Virus record (IMG/VR): IMGVR_UViG_3300042535_000037
Location: 36,031 to 100,030 of that record
Length of the DNA stretch: 64,000 nucleotides
Strand: one strand, 5' to 3'
DNA from: a virus
Lineage: Duplodnaviria; Heunggongvirae; Uroviricota; Caudoviricetes
The position numbers and the translations under genes are program-made. A model generated the notes under the pieces. The model saw only the letters and a list, made by a program, of their open reading frames with translations, had not been told where the DNA came from and made no database searches. The stretch's first letter is position 1. Each line of letters starts with the position of its first letter. Below, piece after piece: positions 2,813 to 44,787 of the stretch.

Positions 2813-4351
2813 ATGAAAAAATTAGCCTCATTGATTGAATCCATAATGAATACATCTTCAACTAAAGCAAAGGAAGACCTTCTCGTTAACTTCCTGACAG
2901 AAAATCCATCTCCTGAATATATCCGTTTTCTTGGAAGTGAAATACTTCCGAAGCCTCAACCCTTAAACATAGGGAAAGCTACGGTCTCCAAAGCAATAGA
3001 AAACATTTCAGGTGCAAACATGAAAGAGCTCGTAAAAGAACATGGCTCCGTTTCACTTGCTACTTTCTATGCTTTCCAGAAAAGAAACACTAAGCCATCA
3101 ATATTTGATGACCTTCTGGTTCTTCCTTCCAAAAAATCAATTCTTACTATCCTTGAAAATATATCAAAGAATCAAAAGAAAGATGCTCAAGGAGAATACC
3201 TTTTCTCGATATTCAATGGACAAGACCCTCTATCTGCAATGGCTCTATCCCACTTCATTCTTGAAGACCTTCCCGTAGGCTATAACGACAAAATTCTCAT
3301 AAAAGCGATAGCTAGAGTCAAGTCTGTTCCAGCAGACCAAATAGAACTTGCTTACTACTTTACAAATTCATTTACAAAGTTAATGTATCTCAACAGTGTT
3401 GAGATTTCCTCTCTCATTGAAAAAGGTGCAGTAGTAGGATTTCCTGTAAAGTGTATGCTTTGTGAAACTCTCGAAAGTACATCATATCCTTGTATAACTC
3501 AACGTAAACTTGATGGCAACCGCTTACAAATTCACATTATATCTCCATCAATTTTCAAGTTATACTCCCGTAAGCTTGAAGATGTAACGGCATCACATCC
3601 CGACCTAGAGGAAGCAATCTCCAATTTCTACCATGACAATGTAAGTTACATGCCATGTATCTTAGATGGAGAAGCGATAATAGGTGGCAAGTTTACTGAT
3701 GGAATGACCCGCTTCCGAAGAAAACATGACATTGAAGAATATGCAGAAAAATATCCTGTGACTCTAAACATATTCGATATTATTGTGTGCTCAGGAGCCT
3801 CAATTGATAAAATGCCTCTTAGTGGTAGGATTGAATACCTTTCTACCTTCAAATTTAACGAAAGAATTCAACTAGTACCTCACATCATAACTAACTCTGA
3901 AGTGGAAATGCAGGAGTATTTCTCAATATGTCTTGAGGAAGGTTATGAAGGCATTATCATCAAAGACATAGAATCTCAATACCTCTTCAATTCAAGAGGC
4001 TCTGAATGGCAGAAACTCAAGCCTAAGTACACATACGACCTCATCTGCTACGATGGAAACTATGGAACCAACAAAAACAAAGATGTAATGTCATCCATCA
4101 AGCTTAAATCCTCTGAAGGCTTAGAATTAGGTAACTGCGCAGGTATATCCGAAGAGTCGATGCAGGAAATCACCAAGAGAATTGTTTCAGGTCAACAATT
4201 CGTTGTTGAAGTGGAGTTCGAATCTCTACAGAAAGGTGACACCTCTTCGGGTTACTCTCTTCGCTTCCCTCGCTTCATACGCATCCGTGATGACAAACAG
4301 TTATCTGAAGCAAACTCTATGAAAGACATAACCAAATGCAAGAGGACTTAA
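2813..4351 (+). CDS. lig: ATP-dependent DNA ligase
   Basis: motif I KLDGNR, motif IV EGIIIKD, motif V WQKLKPKY; 512 aa. Confidence 0.85.
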   Translation: MKKLASLIESIMNTSSTKAKEDLLVNFLTENPSPEYIRFLGSEILPKPQPLNIGKATVSKAIENISGANMKELVKEHGSVSLATFYAFQKRNTKPSIFDDLLVLPSKKSILTILENISKNQKKDAQGEYLFSIFNGQDPLSAMALSHFILEDLPVGYNDKILIKAIARVKSVPADQIELAYYFTNSFTKLMYLNSVEISSLIEKGAVVGFPVKCMLCETLESTSYPCITQRKLDGNRLQIHIISPSIFKLYSRKLEDVTASHPDLEEAISNFYHDNVSYMPCILDGEAIIGGKFTDGMTRFRRKHDIEEYAEKYPVTLNIFDIIVCSGASIDKMPLSGRIEYLSTFKFNERIQLVPHIITNSEVEMQEYFSICLEEGYEGIIIKDIESQYLFNSRGSEWQKLKPKYTYDLICYDGNYGTNKNKDVMSSIKLKSSEGLELGNCAGISEESMQEITKRIVSGQQFVVEVEFESLQKGDTSSGYSLRFPRFIRIRDDKQLSEANSMKDITKCKRT

Positions 4352-6336: not shown

Positions 6337-6424
6337 GTGTAAATACTAATTCTAATGTTATTTGAACTTTCTCATTACTATTTTTCAGATAAACTATATA
6401 TACAAATACATCATTTCCGAATTC

Positions 6425-7117
6425 ATGACTGAATACGTGATTGGAGATATACATGGTCGATACAATGCATTGGAGCAGTGTCTTGAACTATCGCAATTCG
6501 ATGAAAAAAACGACACCCTCATTCTTCTTGGAGACATTGTTGATGGTGGTCGCCAAACATATGAAGTCATAGAACGCTTACTAACGTTGAATACAAAATT
6601 CGTACTAGGAAACCACGATAGCTGGTTCATCAACTACATTAAAAATTCTGTAGAGCTTCCTATATGGACCTCTCAAGGTGGAATCAACACTCTCTATTCA
6701 TATCAGAAAAATAACAAAGGGGTCATTCCTGATTCTCATAAAGAATTCCTTTTTAATCATCTACCCTACTACGAATGTTCAAATGGGAACCCAAATAAAA
6801 TTTCCTACATATTTGTACATGGTGGTTTTGACCCTCTCAAACCAATTCACGAACAACCTATAGAAAAACTTCTTTGGGATAGGAGCCTTCCAGAATTTGC
6901 AAAAAAACAGTTCATACCTAACTACAAAAAAGTCTTCATAGGTCACACCACAACTCAATATCTTAACTCAACAACCCCTGTAAAACTCAACAACCTTATA
7001 ATGATGGATACAGGTGCAGGGTGGAGTGGTCGCCTTTCCATCATGAACATTCGTACTGAAGAATATTGGCAATCCAAAAAGCAAAAACCTTCCCGCTCAA
7101 ATGGTGGATACTGGTAA
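6425..7117 (+). CDS. calcineurin-like metallophosphatase (lambda-phosphatase/ApaH-like)
   Basis: GDIHGRY, GDIVDGG, GNHD motifs; TATA-like box ~30 nt upstream. Confidence 0.8.
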   Translation: MTEYVIGDIHGRYNALEQCLELSQFDEKNDTLILLGDIVDGGRQTYEVIERLLTLNTKFVLGNHDSWFINYIKNSVELPIWTSQGGINTLYSYQKNNKGVIPDSHKEFLFNHLPYYECSNGNPNKISYIFVHGGFDPLKPIHEQPIEKLLWDRSLPEFAKKQFIPNYKKVFIGHTTTQYLNSTTPVKLNNLIMMDTGAGWSGRLSIMNIRTEEYWQSKKQKPSRSNGGYW

Positions 7118-12801: not shown

Positions 12802-15800
12802 ATGAACCTTAAAAGCCTACTGATATTCCTATTCGTATTTCTTTTAACCATCAACGTAGGTTCCGCAGCTACACCGCCAATTGTGTACGTTGCTACTGAC
12901 GGAACAGGCGACTACAACTGTGATGGAACTGCCGACCAAGTACAATTAAACGATGCGTTATTATTTGCCTATAATAACAGAGCATCTGGATACACTACAG
13001 TCTACCTAAGAAGTGGAACTTACTGGATAGACTCTCAGATATTTCTCACCAACAACATAATTCTTACAGGTGATTCTACAGCTAAAATTAAGCTTATAGA
13101 CGACTGTCCTTGGCAAAGAACGTACACAGGTGCATTGGCATATTCATCTTCTGGTACTCAAACCTTGCCTATGATAATGGCTCGTAGTGGTCATAATACA
13201 GGTTTCACTATCACTAACATCATTATTGATGGAAACTCTCAAGGAAACACAGATGTACCATTTGGTCAGGGATGGTATAACCTCTTAAACTTCTACCAGT
13301 GTACACATGTTTCACTGGACCATGTTACGTTACAGTATGGTAAATCAGACGGATTTAAATTTCAGTCAGGCTCATACGCTTCAATGACAAACTGTAATGT
13401 CAACAAAATAGGTCACGATGCAGGGTATTTCCTATACTCAAACTACATAACGTTTACAAATAATACTGTATTTACTCGTACAAACTCTGCATGTCGTATC
13501 AGTAGCGGTGCTCACATAGTTATTGCTCACAACCATATTTACTCAGGAACCATTACCACTGCCGATGGTGGCGGCTCTTCAACCGGACCCGGAATTGAAA
13601 TAGATTTAGATGGCTCTGAATACTGTTATGATTGTGAAATATATGACAACGTAATTCATGACCTTAGAGGTTCAGGCATATGGATGACATCATCTAATGC
13701 AGATGGTGGAAGAGATGTTCACATCTATAACAATATAATTTATAATGTTGGTAAATATACTTACTTTAATGGTTACTCTATGGGTGGAATAACGCTCTTC
13801 CAATTCAACAATTCAATCATAGAGAACAATGTTTTTAATGAAGCAGGAGTGGGAGCACTCATTTACGCTGAAGGAACTGATTCTCCTACAGGTGGAAGCA
13901 AGCTTTATCATACTACTTTCAGAAACAACATAGTCATTAACACAAATGACCAACTACCAACTACTTCAGGTGGTTCAACTTACATATATGCAGTTCCAAT
14001 AATGAATCATGATGGAACTTACAGTAGAATCCATGCTTACAACAATGACTTCTACAACAACTACAACAACCTTGTCTACAAATCACACGTAGCTACAGAC
14101 TCTAACAACCTAGCAGTGGACCCTCAATTCGTAGATGCAACAAATCATAACTACCATCTAAAATCAACTGCTGGTCACTATAACAACGGAAATTGGGTAA
14201 TAGACGCTGTATCTTCATCACTCATAGATGCAGGTCTCTCTACTTCAGACTATTCCGATGAACCTGAACCCAACGGTAATCGCATCAACATAGATGCATA
14301 TGGAAATACTGCTCAGGCATCTAAATCTCCAACTGAGACAACACCTACCCCAGACCCAGACCCCGTTAATCCTGAGCCTGAACCTGTAGTAGTAGAGATA
14401 CAAGACCCTGTAGACAACCGCTTGCGCTCTCTATCTCCAACAACAGTATACTCTTCATCTACATACATAGATGCAGGAAATATAGCTTCTACGAGCTCTA
14501 CGGTGCGTGACCTGATTTGGTACGACCTAACAAATTACAACGATTCAAGCCAAGTAACTAGTGCCGAACTCAAATTGTTCTGGTATTATCAAACATCACG
14601 TACTTCAGATACAATCATAGAAATCTATAGACCTGCTGCAACATGGAGTACATCAACTGCAACATGGAACAATGCTAACACATGGTATGATGCTAACGGA
14701 GTGCTTGGTGGTTCAACACCATACGATTCAATCACATTCCCATCAACACAATCTCCAACAAACAGTTACTACTCATTTGATGTAACTGACCTTGTACAAG
14801 CATATGCAGAAGGAACCTACACTAACACAGGTTTCCTCATCAAAACACGTACAGAAAACAATGACTACGTTGCTTTCTACTCTCTAGACAACGGAAACTC
14901 TTCAAGGGTTCCAGTATTAGACATAAGTAGCACAGCAGTAAATATTGAAGCGTACTCTCCTACATCAAATCCAACGAAAACAGTAGGACAGTCACAAATT
15001 TTTACTACTCAATTAACTGCTACAGGAGATGTAGAATGGTCAGTTGATGGTATAATTAAGGAATATGACCTTAATACTCAACATGCATCATACACCTTCA
15101 CACCAACTGCTGCAAGAACCTATACGATAAGAGCAGAGACACCAACTGCTTACAAGTCTTGGTCTCTCACAGCTACATCAAATTCAACATCTAACCCTGC
15201 ATCTAACGTGACTACCTCAGTCTCAGGTATAGCCTACGTTGCTACTACAGGCTCCGACACTACAGGTAATGGTTCAATTTCTCTACCATATGCCACAATC
15301 ACAAAAGCCCTAACAACAACTGCACCTACAATCATGGTTAAAGGTGGTAACTATAACCTAGCTACCCCAATAACCCGTAGTAATGTAATAATTAAGGGAT
15401 ATAACGGCAATGCAGTATTTGACCATTCCGATGATACAGGAACAGCCTTCACGGTTACAGGTAGAACAAACATTACTCTACAGAATCTCATAATTCGTAA
15501 CTATGAATATGGTGTCTATGGAACAACTTCACTAACAAACTTGATAGTAGAGAACTGTTCAATCACAAATAATGCTCAGGACTCAATCTGGCTCGACCAG
15601 ATAAACGCCAACGGAATATACCTATATAACTCTACATTTGCAGACAATGAATATCACGGTGTCCATCTATCTAACCAAGAAGTAGGAAAACTAATCCAAA
15701 ATGTAGTCATAGAAAACAATGATTTCTATGATTGTCCAAGTAATCTATTGGACTTCCGTTCCAACGTTACGGATGTTACTTGCTCTGAAAATTATTACTA

Positions 15801-16824
15801 CTTCAACTCAGATGAAATCCAGCAGGTAGGAGTATATATCCACAATAACAACTTGGAGACATTTAGTTTCACTAATGAAGAATTCTATAACTGTGCTAGA
15901 CCTATGGAAATACTCAACGGTCAATCAGTTACAGTTACAAGTTCTCACTGGAACAATATTCACGATGCAACTGCACCACCAGTCTACGTCAATGGAGTTG
16001 AATTCCCTGTTACAGCTTCAGGTAGAGCAATTCTCTTCGGTGGTAACTCTCCAACTAACGAAGGAACTACATATACAGGATACAACAATGTATTCACTGA
16101 TATAGAGCAAACTCTATTTCCAACATACTCTGAAGCAGTAGGAACACCAGTTACAGTGCGTGAATATAACGCTACACTATCAAATGTATCTAAAATATTC
16201 TCTACTTCATCCTGCATAGAAAATATTGCAATACAAACATACCATAATTCACCAGTTAAAACCTTTGAATTTACAAATGCAAATGCTTTGACTTGGAAAT
16301 GGTATGTTAACAATACTTTGGTAGAAACAGACACTAATACGTACTTCCCATCACGTATTCAGAGCGGAATGACAACTGGAACCAATGTCTCAGCAATATG
16401 CACAGACAACGGTGATACACTCCGCATGACTTGGATTAGAGGAAATGGAACAGAAGTTAACGGTGTAATCTACACTAGATACCCGTATACAAGTTCTCCA
16501 AAGCAACTGAAGGGCAATGATGTTTCATTCTCTCTTACTCTCAATGGAAATGCAGACACAAAATGGTATGTAGATAATGTTCTTGTGGAAACAGATTCTT
16601 CCTCAAGTCCAACTTACATATACAATGCCACTGTATCTGGAACACATGTAGTAAAAGCAGTGACATCAGAAGAGACATACACTTGGAATCTTAACGTAGA
16701 AAACCCACAGCAAAAGTTCTACGTAGGTGTAATCACAAGAATAGGTCAAGTGCTATCTTGGGATACAAGAAAACCAACATATGACGACCAAGTTGTAGAC
16801 GGGTTCACCATAATTACAAGGTGA
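12802..16824 (+). CDS. giant secreted right-handed beta-helix (pectin-lyase-fold) repeat protein, adhesin/receptor-binding-like
   Basis: signal peptide; repeated NxxxxN/beta-helix turns (NNTVFTRTN, IAHNHIYSG, DNVIHDLRGSGIWM, ITNNAQDSIWLD); Pro/Thr linker. Confidence 0.75.
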   Translation: MNLKSLLIFLFVFLLTINVGSAATPPIVYVATDGTGDYNCDGTADQVQLNDALLFAYNNRASGYTTVYLRSGTYWIDSQIFLTNNIILTGDSTAKIKLIDDCPWQRTYTGALAYSSSGTQTLPMIMARSGHNTGFTITNIIIDGNSQGNTDVPFGQGWYNLLNFYQCTHVSLDHVTLQYGKSDGFKFQSGSYASMTNCNVNKIGHDAGYFLYSNYITFTNNTVFTRTNSACRISSGAHIVIAHNHIYSGTITTADGGGSSTGPGIEIDLDGSEYCYDCEIYDNVIHDLRGSGIWMTSSNADGGRDVHIYNNIIYNVGKYTYFNGYSMGGITLFQFNNSIIENNVFNEAGVGALIYAEGTDSPTGGSKLYHTTFRNNIVINTNDQLPTTSGGSTYIYAVPIMNHDGTYSRIHAYNNDFYNNYNNLVYKSHVATDSNNLAVDPQFVDATNHNYHLKSTAGHYNNGNWVIDAVSSSLIDAGLSTSDYSDEPEPNGNRINIDAYGNTAQASKSPTETTPTPDPDPVNPEPEPVVVEIQDPVDNRLRSLSPTTVYSSSTYIDAGNIASTSSTVRDLIWYDLTNYNDSSQVTSAELKLFWYYQTSRTSDTIIEIYRPAATWSTSTATWNNANTWYDANGVLGGSTPYDSITFPSTQSPTNSYYSFDVTDLVQAYAEGTYTNTGFLIKTRTENNDYVAFYSLDNGNSSRVPVLDISSTAVNIEAYSPTSNPTKTVGQSQIFTTQLTATGDVEWSVDGIIKEYDLNTQHASYTFTPTAARTYTIRAETPTAYKSWSLTATSNSTSNPASNVTTSVSGIAYVATTGSDTTGNGSISLPYATITKALTTTAPTIMVKGGNYNLATPITRSNVIIKGYNGNAVFDHSDDTGTAFTVTGRTNITLQNLIIRNYEYGVYGTTSLTNLIVENCSITNNAQDSIWLDQINANGIYLYNSTFADNEYHGVHLSNQEVGKLIQNVVIENNDFYDCPSNLLDFRSNVTDVTCSENYYYFNSDEIQQVGVYIHNNNLETFSFTNEEFYNCARPMEILNGQSVTVTSSHWNNIHDATAPPVYVNGVEFPVTASGRAILFGGNSPTNEGTTYTGYNNVFTDIEQTLFPTYSEAVGTPVTVREYNATLSNVSKIFSTSSCIENIAIQTYHNSPVKTFEFTNANALTWKWYVNNTLVETDTNTYFPSRIQSGMTTGTNVSAICTDNGDTLRMTWIRGNGTEVNGVIYTRYPYTSSPKQLKGNDVSFSLTLNGNADTKWYVDNVLVETDSSSSPTYIYNATVSGTHVVKAVTSEETYTWNLNVENPQQKFYVGVITRIGQVLSWDTRKPTYDDQVVDGFTIITR

Positions 16825-17718: not shown

Positions 17719-18252
17719 ATGACTATTGTACAAGATTATTTAGCTGCACAGGCAAAAATAAGCGAATATAAAAAACTATTCTCAGATATAGTAGTGTCTG
17801 CTCATCAAATCGTACAAAGTGAGTGCTCTACAGTTTTCGAGAGAAAATCATATACAATTAAGCAGATTGCTAAGGATGGAGCATCCAATGTATGTGTACT
17901 TGAAGATGATAATGACAAAATATGGATTTCAGTTGACTCCAATGATGCTTTTGATGAAGACGGAAATCTAGAACTTACAATTAAATCAAATCTAGTAGAT
18001 GCCTTCTTATATAATAAAGATGCTTTTAAAGCTGCAATTCTTTCTCAGTTCGAAGATGAAATCAAGGCTGCAAGAGAACTGGAAAAAATTCGTGAAGAAA
18101 GACATCAAGAATCTCTGAAGAGAAAGAAAAAAGAAGAACTTGCTGACCTAATCCTTAAAATTCAGAAGTACGAAAAGGAGTATGGTGTACTGGTATGTCA
18201 CGGACTAGAAGAACTTGGTTCTTTAATAGAAGAGGAAAATTCAGATACGTAG
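17719..18252 (+). CDS. hypothetical coiled-coil protein
   Basis: canonical promoter-leader (ggtgattcaaaATG). Confidence 0.55.
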   Translation: MTIVQDYLAAQAKISEYKKLFSDIVVSAHQIVQSECSTVFERKSYTIKQIAKDGASNVCVLEDDNDKIWISVDSNDAFDEDGNLELTIKSNLVDAFLYNKDAFKAAILSQFEDEIKAARELEKIREERHQESLKRKKKEELADLILKIQKYEKEYGVLVCHGLEELGSLIEEENSDT

Positions 18253-18434
18253 AAGGAAATAAAATCTACGCAACCGACAAGAAGCACGTTTCATGCATTC
18301 GAAAAGAAAGGTATATAAGAAAAGTATACCGTCATAAAATCAGAGCACATAACCGTATCAATGCTGCTAAAGGTCGTTATGACTATATGATTGCAAACTT
18401 CAACCAGACATCGGAGACTGAGTACTTTGACTAA
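18195..18434 (+). CDS. highly basic small protein (possible nucleic-acid binding)
   Basis: ORF overlapping previous gene end by 58 nt in another frame. Confidence 0.3.
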   Translation: MSRTRRTWFFNRRGKFRYVEGNKIYATDKKHVSCIRKERYIRKVYRHKIRAHNRINAAKGRYDYMIANFNQTSETEYFD

Positions 18435-18542
18435 AGAAGAGAAATACATAGAAAAGGAAGAATCTGAAATCATCAACATCGATTTATATACAATGGGAAC
18501 CCTAAACTTCAGACCTAGGGAAAATCATGGGTTCAGGATACT

Positions 18543-19223
18543 ATGAGTAGGAAATACTTGAAAATAGATACCCTCTGGAAGAGAAGAGAAGGAAAGAAAG
18601 GAGCAGTAATTCCAAATGACTACTCCAATCCAGTTTTTCCAAACATAAAAATGTGGATTGCCACAGAAAAAATCAATGGAGAAAACATTCGTATTATGTA
18701 CGATGGCTCTACAAAGACAGTTTCATATGCTGGAAAAACTGATGATGCAGAAATATTTCCAGAGATAATGGATTATCTTCAGGAAAAATTCAGCATAGAG
18801 AAATTCAGAGCTCTTGATAATTTTGACGAAGATACCGACATAACAATTTTCGCTGAGGCTTGCCATAAAAGAATATTAGATTCATATGTATATTTAAAAT
18901 CAGACGAAGTTGCCAAGGTCATCATTTTTGATGTTAAAATAGGCAAGTGGTGGCTGGAACACAACAATGTAATTTCAATTGCAACACATTTTGTTGTTGA
19001 TAATGCACCAGTTCGCTACATAGGAACCATTGAAGAATTGATTAAATTTGTAGTTAAGGAGCAGCAAAGTGTACTTACATATCCTAAAGAAGTAACATTC
19101 GAAGGAATTGTTTGTACTCCACATCCAATGGTGCTCAATCGTGACGGAACTCCCGTTAAGTTCAAGCTAAAGGTTGAAGATTTCCGCAAGCTAAAAGCCA
19201 TAGGCGAAGAATACAAGGTGTAA
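18543..19223 (+). CDS. minimal RNA-ligase-like nucleotidyltransferase (Rnl2-like core)
   Basis: motif I KINGEN, motif III FAEACH, motif IV EGIVC, motif V KFKLK. Confidence 0.55.
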   Translation: MSRKYLKIDTLWKRREGKKGAVIPNDYSNPVFPNIKMWIATEKINGENIRIMYDGSTKTVSYAGKTDDAEIFPEIMDYLQEKFSIEKFRALDNFDEDTDITIFAEACHKRILDSYVYLKSDEVAKVIIFDVKIGKWWLEHNNVISIATHFVVDNAPVRYIGTIEELIKFVVKEQQSVLTYPKEVTFEGIVCTPHPMVLNRDGTPVKFKLKVEDFRKLKAIGEEYKV

Positions 19224-19225
19224 AA

Positions 19226-19771
19226 ATGGTAATCGGATTTACAGGAACTCATTGTACAGGAAAGAGTACTCTTGTTAGACAATTAACTAAAATTGGCTAC
19301 CGCGAAGTATCAAACTCAATTCGTGACTATATAGCTAAGTTCCCGCAATATCAGGAACAATTCTTCAAGGGAGATGAGGCTCTTCAGTTTCACTTCTTAC
19401 ATCAACATATAAACAGAACATGTGCTCCCCATTATCCTTCAGCTTCAGACCGCACCTCAATAGACTATCTTGCTTACTACATGCGTCTACCCGAACAAAA
19501 GTTCCCTGAAATGTATAAGGAGCTCGCTATGTCTGCTCTCATCAACTACGATGTAATTTTCTATACTCCAATAGAGTTTGAATTCATAGATGATAATCTA
19601 CGATTTAAAGACGATTCGCGTGTTCAGGTAGATGAAAACATCTGCTCAATAATTCGTGAGATAAAAAAGGATGATACATACGTAGACATAATACCAGTGA
19701 CAGGCTCCATTCAAGAACGAATGAACACAATTGCAGATACTCTTAGAGAAATGAGAATGGTCATTCACTGA
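19226..19771 (+). CDS. P-loop kinase (polynucleotide/nucleotide kinase-like)
   Basis: Walker A GFTGTHCTGKST; starts 2 nt after ligase-like gene. Confidence 0.55.
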   Translation: MVIGFTGTHCTGKSTLVRQLTKIGYREVSNSIRDYIAKFPQYQEQFFKGDEALQFHFLHQHINRTCAPHYPSASDRTSIDYLAYYMRLPEQKFPEMYKELAMSALINYDVIFYTPIEFEFIDDNLRFKDDSRVQVDENICSIIREIKKDDTYVDIIPVTGSIQERMNTIADTLREMRMVIH

Positions 19772-20208
19772 CCACTCTTTTTACCCCATTTTCTAGCCCA
19801 ATATTCCTCAAATTCTCCTGTAGTGGGTTTATAACCTTTTATAACGGCTACAGGAACCAAAGTATTTCCTAATTTTCCATTATCAATTAACCATTTTACA
19901 GCCATTACTCTATGTCTTCCTTCCTGACCATTTCTATCATAATCAAGAATTGCAATAGGAAAAATGCTACCTTTTTGCATCTCTAAAGCATATTTTTCAA
20001 TAAGCTTTCCATTAAGCATAGCCATTTCTCTACTTATATTTCCTTTATGTACCTTAGAGCTCTCAATCAAATAAGAGTTAGGAGTCATATGCTTAATTTC
20101 AAGCACCCTTCCCTTTTCATACTTGAAATATTCCGGCTTCTCCAACATATCTTCTATGTCATAACCTGTACCAGTTATCTTGAAAAATTTATCTCCTTGA
20201 TATTCCAA
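19765..20208 (-). CDS. ParB/sulfiredoxin-fold (ParB-like nuclease domain) protein, paralog 1
   Basis: QEGRHRVMAV motif; paralog of 55707..56084. Confidence 0.55.
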   Translation of the reverse strand: MEYQGDKFFKITGTGYDIEDMLEKPEYFKYEKGRVLEIKHMTPNSYLIESSKVHKGNISREMAMLNGKLIEKYALEMQKGSIFPIAILDYDRNGQEGRHRVMAVKWLIDNGKLGNTLVPVAVIKGYKPTTGEFEEYWARKWGKKSGQ

Positions 20209-25282: not shown

Positions 25283-26053
25283 ATGTTAGAAATCCAGCCA
25301 ATTGTATCTATCAATGCTCAGACATTCTCTGAAGCATACATGAAGGTTCTATGGAACATTAAAGAAGTTGGCGTAGAACACAAACCAGATTACAACGTTT
25401 CAACAAAAAGAATTTATCTTGCACTCTTTGTAAAAGACGTAAACTCTGACCAGTTAAGTCCAATCTGTCCTCTTAAAGAGGAATCTCTCAAGCTCTACAA
25501 AGATGAGCTTAAAGAAGAGTATGCAGAATGGTATGTCTCCCTTCCAGATGATGACAAACGCAAGTTTGACTATTGCTACGCCAAGCAGCTCTACAAGTTT
25601 GGTACAGAAGACATGAATACTCTCAGGATGAACCTTCTCAGTCTTCGCGTAGGCTCCCGAAGACATGCAGCCGCTCTATGGGATAACCGTCTTCACATCG
25701 AAAAATATGAAGACCAGCCATGTTGGGTCTTCTACAAGTTGGAGCTCCTGAGCGAAACAGACCTTCTCGTCTACATTACATATCGTTCATGGGATGCCTT
25801 TGGTGGACTTCCATTTAACCTTCCTGCAATTACTCATGGAATCCAAGACACCATTAAGAAACTCAACCTACCCTACAACATAGTTGGTTTCTTTGCAAAT
25901 GGCTACGATACTCACATATATGAAACTGACCAGAAGCAGGCATTTGATGGTCTCAAGAACTACTCCCCATGTTCAAAATGTGGAGAACCAACCCTTAAAT
26001 CACAAATGACCTTTAATTCAAAGGGTCTTTGTTGTAAAAGCTGCCTGAAGTGA
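25283..26053 (+). CDS. divergent thymidylate synthase (ThyA) family enzyme with C-terminal zinc ribbon; TS or pyrimidine hydroxymethylase
   Basis: SRRHAAALWD, PCWVFYKLEL (catalytic Cys), YITYRSWDAFGGLPFNLP (RS..D...N), GYDTHIY (H,Y) match ThyA cores; N-terminal third diverged; CSKCG...CCKSC tail. Confidence 0.7.
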   Translation: MLEIQPIVSINAQTFSEAYMKVLWNIKEVGVEHKPDYNVSTKRIYLALFVKDVNSDQLSPICPLKEESLKLYKDELKEEYAEWYVSLPDDDKRKFDYCYAKQLYKFGTEDMNTLRMNLLSLRVGSRRHAAALWDNRLHIEKYEDQPCWVFYKLELLSETDLLVYITYRSWDAFGGLPFNLPAITHGIQDTIKKLNLPYNIVGFFANGYDTHIYETDQKQAFDGLKNYSPCSKCGEPTLKSQMTFNSKGLCCKSCLK

Positions 26054-32705: not shown

Positions 32706-34694
32706 GTGATGGTTATGAAAAAATACTTTATTTTATTTTTACTCCTACTCATATCAACGGCAAGTGCAGTTGATGTGAACCCACCCTTAGTATTTGCGGG
32801 TAATACAACTTCAGTTACTCTCAATTACTCAACTACAGTTGATGCCTTAACATTCTATTCTCAAAACAATACCCTAGTAATGGATGATATATCTCATCAG
32901 TTTACTACTACAGGAACGATGAATGTTACTTTCAACGGTTTATTAGAGCTTACTCATACAGGTAGCACAGGTACTTGGACCGTTGGCGGGCTACAGGATG
33001 GAAACTATTCTCTATACATAGACGACTCCTTCTATGAAACAATTTCAAATGGAGATGCTGTATCCCTTAATTCTATAGCAAAATATGAAATTCAACCAGC
33101 AGACGATGTTATGACTTTGAACATGACTTATTGGGAACCTCTCAATGAAACATGTGCTAAATTCACCATCTCAAATGTCTATACAGCATGGTATCCACAG
33201 CTTTCATACACAGTAGCAGACCATACATATTTCCTTTACCGTGACTCAACAGGAACTCTCCTTGCAACTAACGCTACTACATCAACAAACCAAACCATCA
33301 CACTTATAGGAGACTCCATACTTACTTCAGGAAATTATACCATCACTCACATTTTAACATCACTTGTAGGAGTAACTGTTCCAGAAATTACATCATACTC
33401 ACCATCTACACCATCATTCTCAATATTACCAAGTGGTCAAACATCTCAGAGAACATTTACAATTTCATCTGCCAATGACCCCAACTTAGACGTAAAATGG
33501 TATTATGGTGACAAATTCTACAGTTCATACGCCAATGATGAAAATTACATATCTACTTATGGATATACATTAGTAGACACTGTAGAAGTCAATTCTACAT
33601 CAACAACACATACATTCACAACTGATGAACCTGAAACAATAGGTGTAATTGCTCGTCTTATGAATGAGTCAAGTGGTCTCTATGAAGACAAAATCTGGAA
33701 TTGGGTAGTTCAGGAACCAGACTTTGATGAATCTATGGAATATAGTAGTGTTCCTACAGAGAAACCAAACACTATCATCCTTACATCTTCAAATGAGCAC
33801 ATATCAAGTGTAATCTTAGAGTATGAAATTGATGGGGAATACACTAACGTAACAATGGAATCTACATACTCTAATTATGAATATGGAGAAACCATTAACA
33901 ATGAAACTTCATACACATATACTGAAATATTTGAATGTGAAATTAACCCAATGGAAGAAGGAACCTATAACATTGCATCATACTATGTAACTCAGGATGG
34001 AGTTCAATACTCTATAGATGGAAATCTTGAGTTTACAGCAGCAGTAGATGGTTCCACAGTTCAATATACAACTCGTTCTTCCGGTGGCTCATCTTCCGGT
34101 GGTAGTGGTGGAAGTTCAAAGACAACTCAGACCCAAGAAATCATAGAAAAACTCGTAGTTAAAGATGGAGTGGAAACATTCAAGAAGACTTCAGAACACT
34201 CTCTATATTCAGTTTCATCATCAGATGAATCATTTACTGTGCTTGTAAAAGATATAGACAGTGAATTAGAAGATGAATCCGTCTACAAAGAAATGGACAT
34301 TTCAACAACTGAAAACGAAACAGTTGACATAACATTCCTTGTAGATACCTCTTGGCTTAACGAAAATGGCGGCTCTGTAAAACTCCTTCATTATACAAAC
34401 GATGAATGGGTAGAAGTTCCAGTAAAGATGCTCTCAAAGACAGATGACTATGTTAAATATGGAGCAACATTAACTTCATACTCTCCATATGCAATCGTGG
34501 CATCCAACGCCAACGTAGGAACCTCTACGAGCGACTCAGACGTAGGAACCTACATTATCATAGCAGTACTTGTAATAGGAGCTCTAGCGTACCTAAGATT
34601 CAAGCCAAGGTCAAAGAAACCCTTTAGTCTTAAATCCCTAAACAAGACTAAACAAAAATCAAAGCCAAAAAAGAGAAATTGGACAGAATTATGA
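32706..34694 (+). CDS. cell-surface protein (signal peptide, Gly/Ser linker, C-terminal TM + basic tail)
   Basis: canonical promoter; S/T-rich. Confidence 0.6.
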   Translation: MMVMKKYFILFLLLLISTASAVDVNPPLVFAGNTTSVTLNYSTTVDALTFYSQNNTLVMDDISHQFTTTGTMNVTFNGLLELTHTGSTGTWTVGGLQDGNYSLYIDDSFYETISNGDAVSLNSIAKYEIQPADDVMTLNMTYWEPLNETCAKFTISNVYTAWYPQLSYTVADHTYFLYRDSTGTLLATNATTSTNQTITLIGDSILTSGNYTITHILTSLVGVTVPEITSYSPSTPSFSILPSGQTSQRTFTISSANDPNLDVKWYYGDKFYSSYANDENYISTYGYTLVDTVEVNSTSTTHTFTTDEPETIGVIARLMNESSGLYEDKIWNWVVQEPDFDESMEYSSVPTEKPNTIILTSSNEHISSVILEYEIDGEYTNVTMESTYSNYEYGETINNETSYTYTEIFECEINPMEEGTYNIASYYVTQDGVQYSIDGNLEFTAAVDGSTVQYTTRSSGGSSSGGSGGSSKTTQTQEIIEKLVVKDGVETFKKTSEHSLYSVSSSDESFTVLVKDIDSELEDESVYKEMDISTTENETVDITFLVDTSWLNENGGSVKLLHYTNDEWVEVPVKMLSKTDDYVKYGATLTSYSPYAIVASNANVGTSTSDSDVGTYIIIAVLVIGALAYLRFKPRSKKPFSLKSLNKTKQKSKPKKRNWTEL

Positions 34695-36860
34695 TTCTGT
34701 CTCATACATATTTCTTATTTCAATAATATTCTTGTGACAAATATATGGCATCTTTTCTTTCTTTCTTAATAGCCATCCATAGAACTCATTGTCTTCCTTC
34801 GTGAACAACTTATTCTCATGAACACTTCTACTCTTCTTTAATTTGTGAGCAACATCTCTAGCCTTCTTCCATCTCCTATAATACGCGCCCTTGATTTTTA
34901 CCATCTTTCCTTCTGCATCCTCAAGGACATAACCTTCAATGTACTCTCCGTTCCTCTTGAATTCCATAGCAGTAGACTCTTCTACAAACTTAGTGAATTC
35001 ATTGGAATCATTAATTTCCCCATCATACTCCTTTACTTCTGCTCCAATCAACTTTCCAAGACTAACCAACTGTTCATATGGTAATCTCTCAAGCTTGAAG
35101 TCATTCTTTACTACATCGAGTAAAATTACTTCCTTTCTTTCATACTCTATTATATGTGGGTCATTTTCAGGGTCAAGAACCTCAAACACAAAGGTTACAT
35201 TGAAGTCCTTGATATATTGCTCAAGTGCATCTATGTTAAGACTCTTGGTTGCAATATGCTTGAACCAATCCGCGTATATACCTTCGGTAGTACTCTTACT
35301 TGCATAAAGCATTCCCAACTCTTCATCTCTTCCTATAAGCCCTAGGAACCCATTATACTTCACGAACTTATGTATCGGGTACTTAGCATTTACACTTATC
35401 TTTTGGAACGATGCAGACTCATTTTCATCAATATTAAAGAACTTCTCATAAGCTCTCATGACTATCTTGCCTGTTTGGACATTGACAAATAATCCTCTTG
35501 CCTTGATTGTCTGCTCATTCCAAATCTTCTTCCTAAATACCTCTCTGTCAAAATTATAGCTTACAATCTTGCCATCACACATGAAAACCTTGTTTATATT
35601 GTCATTTGCGTTCAGCTTTTCAAGCATTTCTCCCTCTGGAAGAACCTTTTCTTCATATTGCCTGAATACCGTATTAACTGTATAAACAAAGTCATATCCA
35701 TTTTCACTAATCTCAAATGCCCTGAGATTATCTCCCTTTTCTACTTCAGAATCTACTATGAAGCATCTTTCATTCATTACGGGTAACTTTGCTATATTTC
35801 TATGACCAAATACCTGATAATGATTCTCAGGAGCATTTTCATTGAAGGACTTAACTACTTCTCCTATTGACTTGTACTGACCGACACCATTTATCATCTG
35901 CTCAGTACTAATCAAAGCCAAGAACTGCGGAATATTGCTTAATCCACCGTGAGTACAAAGGAACCTTTCTCCATTATATTCATAATAGAAACACTCAAGC
36001 AGCTTCCTACACAACATTCTGACCTGCTTCTTAGTAACCCCATTAGGTTCCAAGTCCTTTGGCAAAGTCCTGTAAGTAAACTCCCTGCTCTGACAACTAA
36101 ATGGTACATTATCAGGTGAATTTCCCCACAACCAGAGCCATCTCTCATGGTTTCCTTCTAGCAAAACTACGTTCTTCTTTTCTGCAATTTCACAAAGGAA
36201 CTTAACGACCTTGGCATTCTCGATGCCTCTATCAATATAATCCCCTGTGAATATATAGAATTCATCATCTCTGATTTCACCATCTAGATACTCCATCAAT
36301 GCAGTGTGACATCCATGAATATCTCCGATATGGTGAATCTTCTTATATCCATTCAAATTTACACAAATATTCTTAACTTCTCCAAAGAAGTTATCCTTGT
36401 CAATAAACTTGACATACTTCTGTGTTTCAAAGTTATCGAATCTTGAGTACATCCTGTCAATTACATCTTCAGGCACGAACTTGTATGCATCTCTACTTCT
36501 ATTCCTTTCCTTGCAAATTTCAATTGGAACATCTGTAAAGTCAACACATCTCAATCTGTACCTATACTTTTCACAAAGAGTCTTATATCTGGTGAAATCT
36601 GTTCTCTTGCTATGGGTAGCATCAATTACTATAAAGTCTCCCCTATCCATTCTCTTCTCAAGAATCTCGAACATTAAATCCCAAACGTAATTATCATTCC
36701 TCTGGCTAATTCCCATATTTCCTTCAGCCGTAAGTTCAGGACTCTGACACAGGAGCCTTATATCATCAAGACAAATAGTATATGGCTCTAATCCATTCTC
36801 CCTAATCCAAGTGCTCTTTCCACTTGCAGGGCTACCTCTTGTAACTATTAAATATCTCAT
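34689..36860 (-). CDS. pnkp: polynucleotide kinase-phosphatase-ligase (bacterial Pnkp-like trifunctional end-healing/sealing enzyme)
   Basis: N-terminal P-loop GSPASGKST; central GDIHGCH, GDYIDRG, GNHE phosphoesterase; C-terminal nucleotidyltransferase motif I KYNGF. Confidence 0.7.
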   Translation of the reverse strand: MRYLIVTRGSPASGKSTWIRENGLEPYTICLDDIRLLCQSPELTAEGNMGISQRNDNYVWDLMFEILEKRMDRGDFIVIDATHSKRTDFTRYKTLCEKYRYRLRCVDFTDVPIEICKERNRSRDAYKFVPEDVIDRMYSRFDNFETQKYVKFIDKDNFFGEVKNICVNLNGYKKIHHIGDIHGCHTALMEYLDGEIRDDEFYIFTGDYIDRGIENAKVVKFLCEIAEKKNVVLLEGNHERWLWLWGNSPDNVPFSCQSREFTYRTLPKDLEPNGVTKKQVRMLCRKLLECFYYEYNGERFLCTHGGLSNIPQFLALISTEQMINGVGQYKSIGEVVKSFNENAPENHYQVFGHRNIAKLPVMNERCFIVDSEVEKGDNLRAFEISENGYDFVYTVNTVFRQYEEKVLPEGEMLEKLNANDNINKVFMCDGKIVSYNFDREVFRKKIWNEQTIKARGLFVNVQTGKIVMRAYEKFFNIDENESASFQKISVNAKYPIHKFVKYNGFLGLIGRDEELGMLYASKSTTEGIYADWFKHIATKSLNIDALEQYIKDFNVTFVFEVLDPENDPHIIEYERKEVILLDVVKNDFKLERLPYEQLVSLGKLIGAEVKEYDGEINDSNEFTKFVEESTAMEFKRNGEYIEGYVLEDAEGKMVKIKGAYYRRWKKARDVAHKLKKSRSVHENKLFTKEDNEFYGWLLRKKEKMPYICHKNIIEIRNMYETES

Positions 36861-43365: not shown

Positions 43366-43977
43366 ATGTCATCAATTTCAGAGTTAGCATCTTACTTTCA
43401 CGCTCAGGTGCTAAGAATCCCACACGAAGGAACTAACCCAACTAAACGCTTCCTCACAGAAGACCAAATCTTAAAGCTCTTCACTGGAACCGTTTCTATC
43501 CAAGAAAAAGTAGATGGTAAGCTTTGCTTCCGTGAAGCTTTTGACTACGAATTCTCAGGAAAGGGTAAATTAGCTTTTATGTGGGAAGACTTCAATGCAA
43601 AAAAGTCTGTACACACTCACATAAAAAGTTACAACAGACCACCAGTAAATCTAAGAGTTTACTTAGATGCAGTTCTTGAAGTAGAGGGTTATACACCTTT
43701 CATAATTCCACATACAGATAAAGACCTTACAATTGCAACTATAAAGTTCAATGAGCCAAACATTGATGACATATACACAATACTAGAAAAACTTGCTAAT
43801 CGCAAATCCATCTACGGAGACACTAAAATAGAGGGTCTTGTAATAAAGAACTTTGGAGTCATCAACAATGTTTCAATACAAGAAATAATCCGTACTCCAC
43901 ACCTATTTCCATCCCGCCCTCTCTTCGGAAAGTACATAAACACAGAATTTGAGGATGCTTTACATGAACGAGTATAA
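43366..43977 (+). CDS. minimal covalent nucleotidyltransferase (RNA/DNA ligase-like core)
   Basis: motif I EKVDGKL, motif IV EGLVIKN, motif V FGKY. Confidence 0.5.
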   Translation: MSSISELASYFHAQVLRIPHEGTNPTKRFLTEDQILKLFTGTVSIQEKVDGKLCFREAFDYEFSGKGKLAFMWEDFNAKKSVHTHIKSYNRPPVNLRVYLDAVLEVEGYTPFIIPHTDKDLTIATIKFNEPNIDDIYTILEKLANRKSIYGDTKIEGLVIKNFGVINNVSIQEIIRTPHLFPSRPLFGKYINTEFEDALHERV

Positions 43978-44332
43978 AGAAATTACCAAGACCTTATCAT
44001 TTGAAGACTTCAAAAACATTATCTACCGTTCTAAAATGAACGGTGCTACTTTTTCAGTTGAAACAGATTTTGAAGATGCTCCAATAGAAGATGAATTAGA
44101 CTTAGAACTCCACAACGAATTCTCAGAAGTTATCCATAGAAACAACATATTTGAAATTATAGGTTTCCTTTACATTGAAGGTATAGAAATTCGTAACCTT
44201 AGTGTTCAAGTTAAACCATTCGGAACAGTAACATTCTTCAAAAATCACATTTACTACAACACAGAATCAAAAATAGAAACTCTTCTTCGCATTTGTGGCT
44301 ACATGCCTACCATAATCAAGGAGTCAACATGA
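43949..44332 (+). CDS. hypothetical protein
   Basis: ORF. Confidence 0.45.
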   Translation: MRMLYMNEYKEITKTLSFEDFKNIIYRSKMNGATFSVETDFEDAPIEDELDLELHNEFSEVIHRNNIFEIIGFLYIEGIEIRNLSVQVKPFGTVTFFKNHIYYNTESKIETLLRICGYMPTIIKEST

Positions 44333-44787
44333 GACCATCTCAAGATGAATACTACATGAACATCGCAAAGGTCGTAGCGACCCGCTCAACATGCGTTCGT
44401 AGACAAATAGGTACAGTACTTGTCCGTTACAATTCAATCCTTGCTACAGGCTACAACGGAGCTCCCAGAGGCTTACCACACTGCATAGATGTAGGCTGTA
44501 TCCGTGAACAACTCAATATCCCCTCTGGAACCCAACATGAGCGTTGCCAAGCTATTCACAGTGAAGTTAATGCAATTTTACAATGTGCTCTTCATGGAAT
44601 CTCTACAAAAGGAGCTATCCTCTATTGTACAAATCAACCATGCTCAATTTGTGCTCGCATAATTATTAATGCAGGTATCTCAAGAATCATCTATGAAGGT
44701 TCCTATCCCGATGAAGCAACTATAAATCTCTTCAAACAAGCCAACATTCCTCTTGTAAAAATGCAAGTAAAACCTTTTATACATTAA
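44329..44787 (+). CDS. dCMP deaminase (cytidine/deoxycytidylate deaminase family)
   Basis: HSEVNAI and PCSICA zinc motifs; SD AAGGAGT. Confidence 0.85.
   Translation: MRPSQDEYYMNIAKVVATRSTCVRRQIGTVLVRYNSILATGYNGAPRGLPHCIDVGCIREQLNIPSGTQHERCQAIHSEVNAILQCALHGISTKGAILYCTNQPCSICARIIINAGISRIIYEGSYPDEATINLFKQANIPLVKMQVKPFIH

Follow-up and report, generated by a model that had tools for sequence, protein, structure and literature searches.

Several described systems bring a ligase and a kinase together, among them T4 Pnk with Rnl1, and Pnkp. The Rnl2 and Rnl5 enzymes are characterized by template-directed nick sealing (PMC1807946, PMC4408790). More than one RNA ligase may occur in a single viral genome: jumbo phages are reported to carry RtcB, Rnl1 and Rnl2 combined, or three Rnl2 paralogs (PMC7824862), and the archaeal virus HGTV-1 carries two Rnl2-family ligases along with RtcB (PMC8651126). 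Regarding kinases of the NadR type, the phage system NARP3 is a two-gene unit composed of a PnuC-like transporter and a bifunctional NadR-like enzyme (PMC13464706). The present analysis concerns a ligase gene and a kinase gene found side by side in a stretch of 64,000 nucleotides (nt) from a Caudoviricetes virus (IMG/VR record IMGVR_UViG_3300042535_000037, positions 36,031 to 100,030), referred to in its whole length as the window. The two open reading frames (ORFs) were confirmed at the places reported by an initial annotation of the window, with lengths in amino acids (aa):

18543-19223, + strand: ligase ORF, 226 aa, a compact ATP-dependent polynucleotide ligase of the Rnl2 superfamily, with no domain other than the adenylyltransferase
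19226-19771, + strand: kinase ORF, 181 aa, a stand-alone AAA_28 P-loop kinase resembling the NadR ribosylnicotinamide-kinase domain

The initial annotation described the pair as an RNA repair module following the logic of T4 Rnl1 and Pnk. The results favor a different reading, to which we assign a probability of roughly 55%: a domain-only Rnl2-like ligase would seal RNA breaks whose ends are already ligatable, and it would share a transcript, though no function, with a NadR-like kinase of small-molecule nucleosides or nucleotides. The region is not a new repair system, as each gene is one more member of a known family, and the attractive combination of a Pnk with an Rnl is corrected here as unsupported.

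The 226-aa protein matches the Pfam family PF09414 (RNA_ligase) with an E-value of 2.2e-10 and 41.4 bits, against a cutoff of 27, its residues 38-207 covering model positions 3-170 of 171. It also matches phrog_548, named "RNA ligase", with an E-value of 2.3e-17. The strings that had been proposed as ligase motifs I, III, IV and V (KINGEN, FAE, EGIVC and KFKLK) were all located in the protein, as EKINGEN at residues 42-48, FAE at 103-105, EGIVC at 187-191 and KFKLK at 206-210. The predicted catalytic residues are E42, K43 (the AMP-accepting lysine), N48, E105, F129-D130, E187, K208 and K210. In an alignment of 100 family sequences, E42, K43, E105, D130, E187 and K208 are invariant, while Y5, G46, N48, R50, F129, G188 and K210 (the last conserved in 97%) are nearly so. 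When the family profile is compared with T4 Rnl2 (1S68), an E-value of 1.6e-13 is obtained, and the conserved residues map to motifs I, III, IIIa, IV and V. Direct searches of PDB sequences with the single ligase and kinase proteins returned only noise, and profiles were needed for such comparisons.

An AlphaFold2 (AF2) model of the ligase, built on the family alignment, has a pLDDT (predicted local distance difference test) of 95.8. The top Foldseek matches of this model are the T4 Rnl2 structures 2HVR and 1S68, followed by Naegleria Rnl5, trypanosome REL1, archaeal Rnl3, T4 Rnl1 and fungal Trl1. A clear DNA ligase is first encountered at rank 35, and no capping enzyme is found among the top 50. 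Neither PF01068 nor PF01331 was reported for the protein at E<=1, the model contains no OB domain, and the protein has no DNA-binding domain. The initial annotation's assignment to the RNA-ligase type is upheld, given that the capping enzyme or DNA-ligase fragment it had named as counter-evidence was indicated neither by profile nor by fold search. We regard the protein as a bona fide Rnl2-superfamily adenylyltransferase of the RNA-ligase type, whose activity is predicted.

In comparison with the adenylyltransferase domain of T4 Rnl2 (1S68, 2HVQ, 2HVR), which is the best structural match, the fold and the catalytic motif set are common and the N-terminal Tyr5 is aligned. However, T4 Rnl2 has 334 aa and a C-terminal domain, whereas the window protein has 226 aa and ends about 16 residues past motif V, and therefore lacks that domain; identity is about 20%, the TM-score is 0.6-0.65, and the residues flanking motif III in the window protein are odd. 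On the NCBIfam Rnl2 equivalog TIGR02307, the protein scores 16.9 bits against a cutoff of 197. Given the missing C-terminal domain and a score so far under the equivalog cutoff, the protein is classified outside Rnl2 sensu stricto (T4 Rnl2, KVP40 Rnl2, REL1).

An exhaustive profile search yielded 3224 cluster representatives with an E-value of 1e-3 or better; for 1063 of them it was 1e-30 or better, and these are nearly all stand-alone proteins of 205-240 aa. This domain-only ligase family of about 220 aa, with more than 1000 clusters, is large and already annotated as "RNA ligase". Homologs so annotated in cultured phages present 28-32% identity over 94-100% of the query, and are found in Streptomyces phages (BillNye, Coruscant and others), in crAss-like phages (IAS virus, cr116_1) and in Campylobacter phage vB_CjeM_WX1. 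These compact proteins (PHROG 548) are of the same size, about 205-240 aa, and constitute the window protein's own family, but their gene neighbors differ. No biochemically characterized or structurally solved member was found among the compact phage proteins annotated as RNA ligases. Eight longer proteins of the family were checked for informative fused domains, and nothing useful emerged apart from one weak AAA match. An "undifferentiated stand-alone adenylyltransferase" has been postulated as the ancestor of ligases (PMC1807946), and, more speculatively, the domain-only ligases of about 220 aa could be living examples of it.

The downstream ORF is a Walker-A kinase, as had been noted from the sequence: the string GTHCTGKS is found at residues 7-14, along with an invariant D75-R76 and a lid, IDDNLRF, with an invariant R126. 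It matches PF13521 (AAA_28) with an E-value of 5e-14 and 53.3 bits, against a cutoff of 27, over model positions 2-164 of 164, and no AAA_33/Pnk match was obtained in Pfam. The matched PHROG families are named "thymidylate kinase" and NadR-type adenylyltransferase, and the automatic name given by JGI is nicotinamide riboside kinase. A profile of 60 relatives has its best matches in a Mycoplasma deoxynucleoside kinase (1.7e-12), NadR (8e-8) and thymidylate kinase (1.5e-7), with no polynucleotide kinase among the 60 matches listed. Foldseek agrees with the profile, placing the kinase with NadR, thymidylate kinases and deoxynucleoside kinases, and the polynucleotide kinases well below. The protein is probably a nucleoside or nucleotide kinase, with a substrate that is predicted as a class only.

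The residues GTGKS, D75 and the lid DDNLR126 align with the motifs of L. lactis NadR (motif positions from PMC7221760). In comparison with the NadR kinase domain (E. coli-type 8X7F, L. lactis 6GYE, H. influenzae 1LW7), however, the window kinase is a stand-alone protein of 181 aa, without the nicotinamide mononucleotide (NMN) adenylyltransferase and helix-turn-helix domains; it presents DRT where NadR has the Walker B residues DTD, and it scores 18.9 bits against a cutoff of 341 on the NCBIfam nadR equivalog TIGR01526. In comparison with NARP3, whose enzyme is Bas30_86, the window kinase has no PnuC partner, its neighbors being the ligase and an unrelated 147-aa protein. No match to an NMN adenylyltransferase or a PnuC-like transporter was obtained among the 54 window ORFs scanned against Pfam. 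Given the lack of both, the kinase is classified as neither NadR nor a NARP3 system. The phage AAA_28 proteins annotated as thymidylate kinases (PHROG 2107, in Streptomyces and Campylobacter phages) and the kinases of 7-deazaguanine clusters belong to the same family and keep the motifs GTGKT, DR, R126 and R165, with 22-34% identity to the window kinase, yet the latter adjoins no queuosine-type or thymidylate genes. No experimental basis was found for the annotations of the phage AAA_28 kinases.

The resemblance to T4 Pnk with Rnl1 and to Pnkp lies in the concept, common to all, of a ligase plus a kinase in one transcription unit. The components differ: the window kinase is AAA_28 and not of the Pnk/AAA_33 type, Pnk structures rank far below small-molecule kinases, and the ligase resembles Rnl2 more than Rnl1 or Rnl4. 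Furthermore, neither protein of the pair contains a 3'-phosphatase or 2',3'-cyclic phosphodiesterase domain, the nearest phosphoesterases being at 6362-7117 and within 34689-36860. The T4 Rnl1/Pnk logic put forward initially does not hold for the kinase, and the adjacency is not conserved, as described below.

The gene arrangement itself is compatible with joint transcription. The TAA that closes the ligase ORF ends at 19223, the kinase opens with an ATG at 19226, and the gap thus measured equals the 2 nt first reported. Two sequence patterns flank the pair:

18483-18490, + strand: TTTATATA, an archaeal TATA-box-like element, 53 nt 5' of the ligase start codon
19754-19778, both strands: bidirectional terminator-like hairpin where the kinase gene converges with the minus-strand gene 19765-20208

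The window contains 22 copies of the element TTTATATA where 7.6 would be expected (about threefold), a count reached in none of 100 shuffles, and these copies mostly lie 25-65 nt 5' of start codons, as archaeal TATA boxes do. Example sites are 2786, 12770, 18483, 25248, 30452 and 56696. The copy at 18483 is likely the promoter of the ligase-kinase transcription unit, and no element of this type is found in the gap between the two genes. The hairpin at the kinase 3' end was found by a pattern scan of both strands as a consensus match only, with a T-rich tail on the + strand. Given the 2-nt gap, the single upstream TATA-like element and the 3' hairpin, it is plausible that ligase and kinase form one transcription unit in this genome, with promoter and terminator deduced from patterns only. 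To that extent the operon proposed in the initial annotation is retained: the genes are co-transcribable by their spacing and by the promoter-like and terminator-like patterns around them.

The proposed module, in contrast, is not sustained once relatives are considered. In the related virus L006, the kinase is 76% identical, and synteny with the window extends from the large protein with disaggregatase domains up to and including the genes that follow the kinase; in the place of the ligase, between a conserved 79-aa ORF and the kinase, there is a 71-aa ORF preceded by a TATA-like element of its own. The ligase therefore behaves as a variable cassette, whereas L006 retains the kinase in its absence. 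Conversely, the closest ligase relatives with genomic context, L001 and L003, have no kinase downstream. For a broader comparison, 80 IMG/VR loci were sampled for the ligase, with the ligase ORF called in 74 of them, representing about 64 lineages at 70% identity; for the kinase, the ORF was called in 27 of 28 IMG/VR loci, representing 16 lineages at the same identity. The pair is found in one of the roughly 64 ligase lineages, and a compact ligase lies within 5 kb of the kinase in none of the 27 kinase loci. What sets the two genes side by side in the window would be a difference in gene cassettes among related viruses rather than an obligate module.

The neighbors of the ligase family were also considered. 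A Walker-A scan of 862 neighbor proteins found kinase-like proteins only in the window's virus and in one other virus, besides a single P-loop protein of 172 aa whose Walker A is internal (L035). This shows, as far as gene neighborhoods can tell, that the compact ligase family normally works without a dedicated kinase, which would be expected if the ends to be joined already carry 3'-OH and 5'-PO4. RtcB lies within 3 kb of the ligase in four mutually divergent loci (L026, L039, L054 and L082) of the roughly 64 lineages, and a calcineurin-like phosphoesterase lies within the same distance in three lineages (L032/L033, L039 and L024). Locus L039 carries both, in the order RtcB, phosphoesterase, ligase. 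These neighbors support a putative RNA-repair role for the family, and recommend it for studies of how a ligase without an accessory domain finds its substrate. At the four cultured-phage loci examined, the ligase adjoins replication or uncharacterized genes and a kinase stands beside none: the homolog follows DNA polymerase I in the crAss-like IAS virus, is flanked in Campylobacter phage WX1 by toprim/AAA genes on one side and RNase H on the other, and is near an exonuclease in MW202615. The closest ligase relative, L001, is near ThyA, ERCC4 and a primase-polymerase.

The kinase relatives have different surroundings. In seven of the 16 viral kinase lineages, the kinase lies between a formyltransferase and GTP cyclohydrolase I (FolE), and the cluster also includes QueC as well as proteins resembling QueF and dCTP deaminase. 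This makes it a 7-deazaguanine DNA-modification cluster like those that Cui et al. described in 2023 (PMC10516641). No kinase is mentioned anywhere in that main paper on 7-deazaguanine pathways, in which Campylobacter phage CP220 is described as having fully ADG-substituted DNA (PMC10516641). The kinase family is a conserved component of such phage clusters, and one for which no earlier assignment was found. The order observed among the loci L100-L127, for instance in L118:2759-6197, is QueC, a 260-aa protein, QueF-like, formyltransferase (DpdN-like), AAA_28 kinase, GTP cyclohydrolase I and dCTP-deaminase-like, and L018:4522-5573 is likewise a site where a kinase relative lies in a 7-deazaguanine cluster. 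Kinase homologs are also present in Campylobacter phages, the group of CP220, and the homolog of Rhizobium phage RHph_X66 comes after ThyX and dUTPase.

Close cellular homologs of the kinase end a conserved operon (L015:501-5561, L016:1740-5564), in which the AAA_28 kinase comes after an uncharacterized protein of about 300-340 aa, a protein resembling FAD oxidoreductases and a TIM-barrel protein of the AP_endonuc_2 type. This operon is located beside mobile-element genes and, in L015, beside defense-type genes (KAP NTPase, SIR2).

Taken with the profiles and the fold, and with a dCMP deaminase and a ThyA-like protein encoded in the window, the contexts of the kinase family point to a role in nucleoside or nucleotide metabolism rather than in the healing of RNA ends.

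The initial annotation further counted four covalent nucleotidyltransferases in the window. Besides the compact ligase, the proteins in question are:

2813-4351, + strand: three-domain ATP-dependent DNA ligase (PF01068 1.2e-34, PF04675 9e-14, PF04679 1.8e-5)
34689-36860, - strand: trifunctional Pnkp-like protein with kinase, metallophosphatase and Rnl1-type ligase domains (AAA_33 5.5e-19, Metallophos 1.3e-17, RNA_lig_T4_1 3.1e-33)
43366-43977, + strand: 203-aa ORF in which the strings KVDG and EGLVIK, seen by eye, resemble ligase motifs I and IV

Pfam domains bear out both the DNA ligase and the separate Pnkp-like gene, which leaves three nucleotidyltransferases on firm ground: the DNA ligase, the ligase domain of the Pnkp-like protein and the compact ligase at 18543-19223. 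For the fourth, the "minimal ligase" at 43366, no confirmation was obtained: neither Pfam, NCBIfam, PHROGs and PADLOC nor PDB sequences and phage genomes gave a match to the ORF, and its hhalign probability against the compact-ligase profile is 1%. The statement that the set is unusually large for 64 kb is weak, with only three members verifiable and several RNA ligases reported in large phages and in at least one archaeal virus. The Pnkp-like protein, located 15 kb from the ligase-kinase pair, matches phrog_8238 at 1.2e-193, and has full-length homologs in SPbeta-like, Twort-like, Brochothrix and Campylobacter phages. It is predicted to be a self-sufficient enzyme for healing and sealing RNA. 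Given that the window already encodes this complete kinase-phosphatase-ligase protein, no separate healing kinase would be needed.

Under the favored reading, the compact ligase would follow the classic three-step pathway: ATP would adenylylate Lys43, the AMP would be passed to the 5'-phosphate end, and attack by the 3'-OH would seal the break. Its likely substrate would be broken RNA with 3'-OH and 5'-PO4 ends, such as nicked tRNA stem-loops cut by metal-dependent nucleases, and since such ends are already suited to ligation, neither a kinase nor a phosphatase would be required. The enzyme would then complement the Pnkp-like protein, which would handle 2',3'-cyclic-phosphate and 5'-OH ends. 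The kinase, being of the class of NadR ribosylnicotinamide kinases, thymidylate kinases and deoxynucleoside kinases, would most likely phosphorylate a nucleoside or nucleotide, for the supply of DNA precursors or of a cofactor, and RNA 5' ends would be an unlikely substrate.

Several points weigh against this reading. The 2-nt spacing and the single upstream promoter-like element imply joint expression of ligase and kinase in this genome. In addition, an unrelated virus has an AAA_28 kinase that lies immediately 5' of a compact ligase and overlaps it, the two genes being swapped relative to the window; the segment L046:4415-5672 is identical in L048, L049 and L051, representing one virus in four samples, with a P22-like portal and a kinase very divergent from that of the window. 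Two independent juxtapositions exceed what is expected of unrelated genes, which keeps the module hypothesis alive at a low probability. As for the ligase itself, the flanks of motif III carry the departures G104A, G106A, G108H and Q112L, at positions where the family has 95-97% Gly (the three glycines) and 81% Gln, and its activity is possibly reduced or altered by them. The isolated adenylyltransferase domain of T4 Rnl2 is not known to achieve complete nick sealing, and if it is incapable of it, a domain-only ligase may need a partner or have another activity. Searches of the literature on PF09414, on PF13521/AAA_28 and on "stand-alone" ligases yielded no study of either family. Finally, the initial annotation had named a dNMP (deoxynucleoside monophosphate) kinase with defined base specificity as the finding that would speak against a repair kinase; what was found comes near to this, a nucleoside/nucleotide-kinase-like class with a substrate predicted in kind only.

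Joint expression and the second, overlapping pair are also what could be expected if the two proteins formed a module for healing and sealing RNA, with the AAA_28 kinase as a new type of 5'-OH polynucleotide kinase readying ends for the compact ligase. NadR-type kinases phosphorylate the 5'-OH of ribose, which is the chemistry of Pnk, and the ligase family does associate with RNA repair genes. Nevertheless, such a module would have to work with neither a phosphatase nor a cyclic phosphodiesterase, in a virus that already has a complete Pnkp-like enzyme; its kinase persists without the ligase in the syntenic relative, the kinase relatives sit in nucleotide and 7-deazaguanine clusters, and the pairing is as rare as the counts above show, which makes this explanation improbable. 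The bolder version, in which AAA_28 kinases were recruited at least twice, in the window's virus and in the unrelated L046 virus, as a new class of 5'-OH polynucleotide kinase for domain-only Rnl2-like ligases, yielding a minimal two-protein repair without phosphatase, is the most speculative proposal made here and would be surprising.

Two further alternatives are considered. That the compact ligase serves replication or repair by joining DNA or RNA-DNA junctions (e.g., at nicks with an RNA 3'-OH strand) rather than by mending tRNA or mRNA, with the kinase in unrelated nucleotide metabolism, fits the replication genes around the homologs in IAS virus, WX1 and MW202615 and around the closest relative L001, as well as the nick-sealing, template-directed action of Rnl2 and Rnl5 (PMC1807946, PMC4408790). 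RNA ligases outrank DNA ligases both by sequence and by structure, however, the protein lacks an OB domain and a DNA-binding domain, a three-domain DNA ligase is already encoded in the window, and RtcB and metallophosphoesterases are recurrent neighbors of the family, so we consider this explanation quite unlikely. For the kinase alone, and compatible with the favored reading of the ligase, a nicotinamide riboside kinase for the salvage of nicotinamide adenine dinucleotide (NAD+) may be proposed, as a stripped-down relative of phage NAD+ reconstitution pathways. The lid IDDNLRF resembles the IDDGFRH of L. lactis NadR (lid residues 304-318, PMC7221760), the automatic JGI name agrees, and NadR-like enzymes that restore NAD+ do exist in phages (NARP3, PMC13464706). 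This is set against the absence of an NMN adenylyltransferase domain and of a PnuC-like transporter among the scanned ORFs, the low nadR score, DRT in place of DTD, and relatives that are annotated as thymidylate kinases and found in thymidylate and 7-deazaguanine contexts; the assignment is unlikely on this balance.

Other genes of the window provide context for the virus as a whole:

6362-7117, + strand: stand-alone calcineurin-like phosphoesterase, near the DNA ligase
18195-18434, + strand: 79-aa ORF, overlapping the end of a 177-aa ORF
19765-20208, - strand: 147-aa gene, convergent with the kinase gene
25283-26053, + strand: divergent thymidylate-synthase-like (ThyA-like) protein, a partial match with an E-value of 1.8e-8
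44293-44787, + strand: dCMP deaminase, next after the 203-aa ORF 43366-43977

Given the phosphoesterase, the ThyA-like protein and the dCMP deaminase, the virus is predicted to have a pyrimidine deoxynucleotide metabolism of its own, and possibly modified bases. The over-represented TATA-like TTTATATA and the disaggregatase domains of a 1340-aa protein at 12802-16824 suggest a large virus of a methanogen-like archaeon, represented by a 183-kb contig. A scan of a genome collection with the 1340-aa protein, in search of a host, returned one irrelevant weak match only. If the virus does infect methanogenic archaea, it would be one more of the few archaeal viruses known with several RNA ligases.

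Around the pair, the 147-aa gene is present in L006 at about 70% identity, and its protein has no match in Pfam, PHROG, NCBIfam or PADLOC; its string QEGRHRVMA resembles motifs of ParB/sulfiredoxin type. The PADLOC scan gave no defense or counter-defense match. Upstream of the ligase, the 177-aa ORF at 17719-18252 (+ strand) was considered as part of a split ligase, owing to a sub-threshold match to the T4 Rnl1 C-terminal domain (E-value of 0.048), and was rejected: it is absent from L006 and from all other ligase loci, is coiled-coil-like, and the match is probably noise. Since the 79-aa ORF that overlaps its end is conserved in L006 (48% identity by tblastx, phmmer E-value of 9e-15), it is predicted to be a real gene for a small basic protein. 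The scan against Rfam returned a tRNA-Asn gene only.

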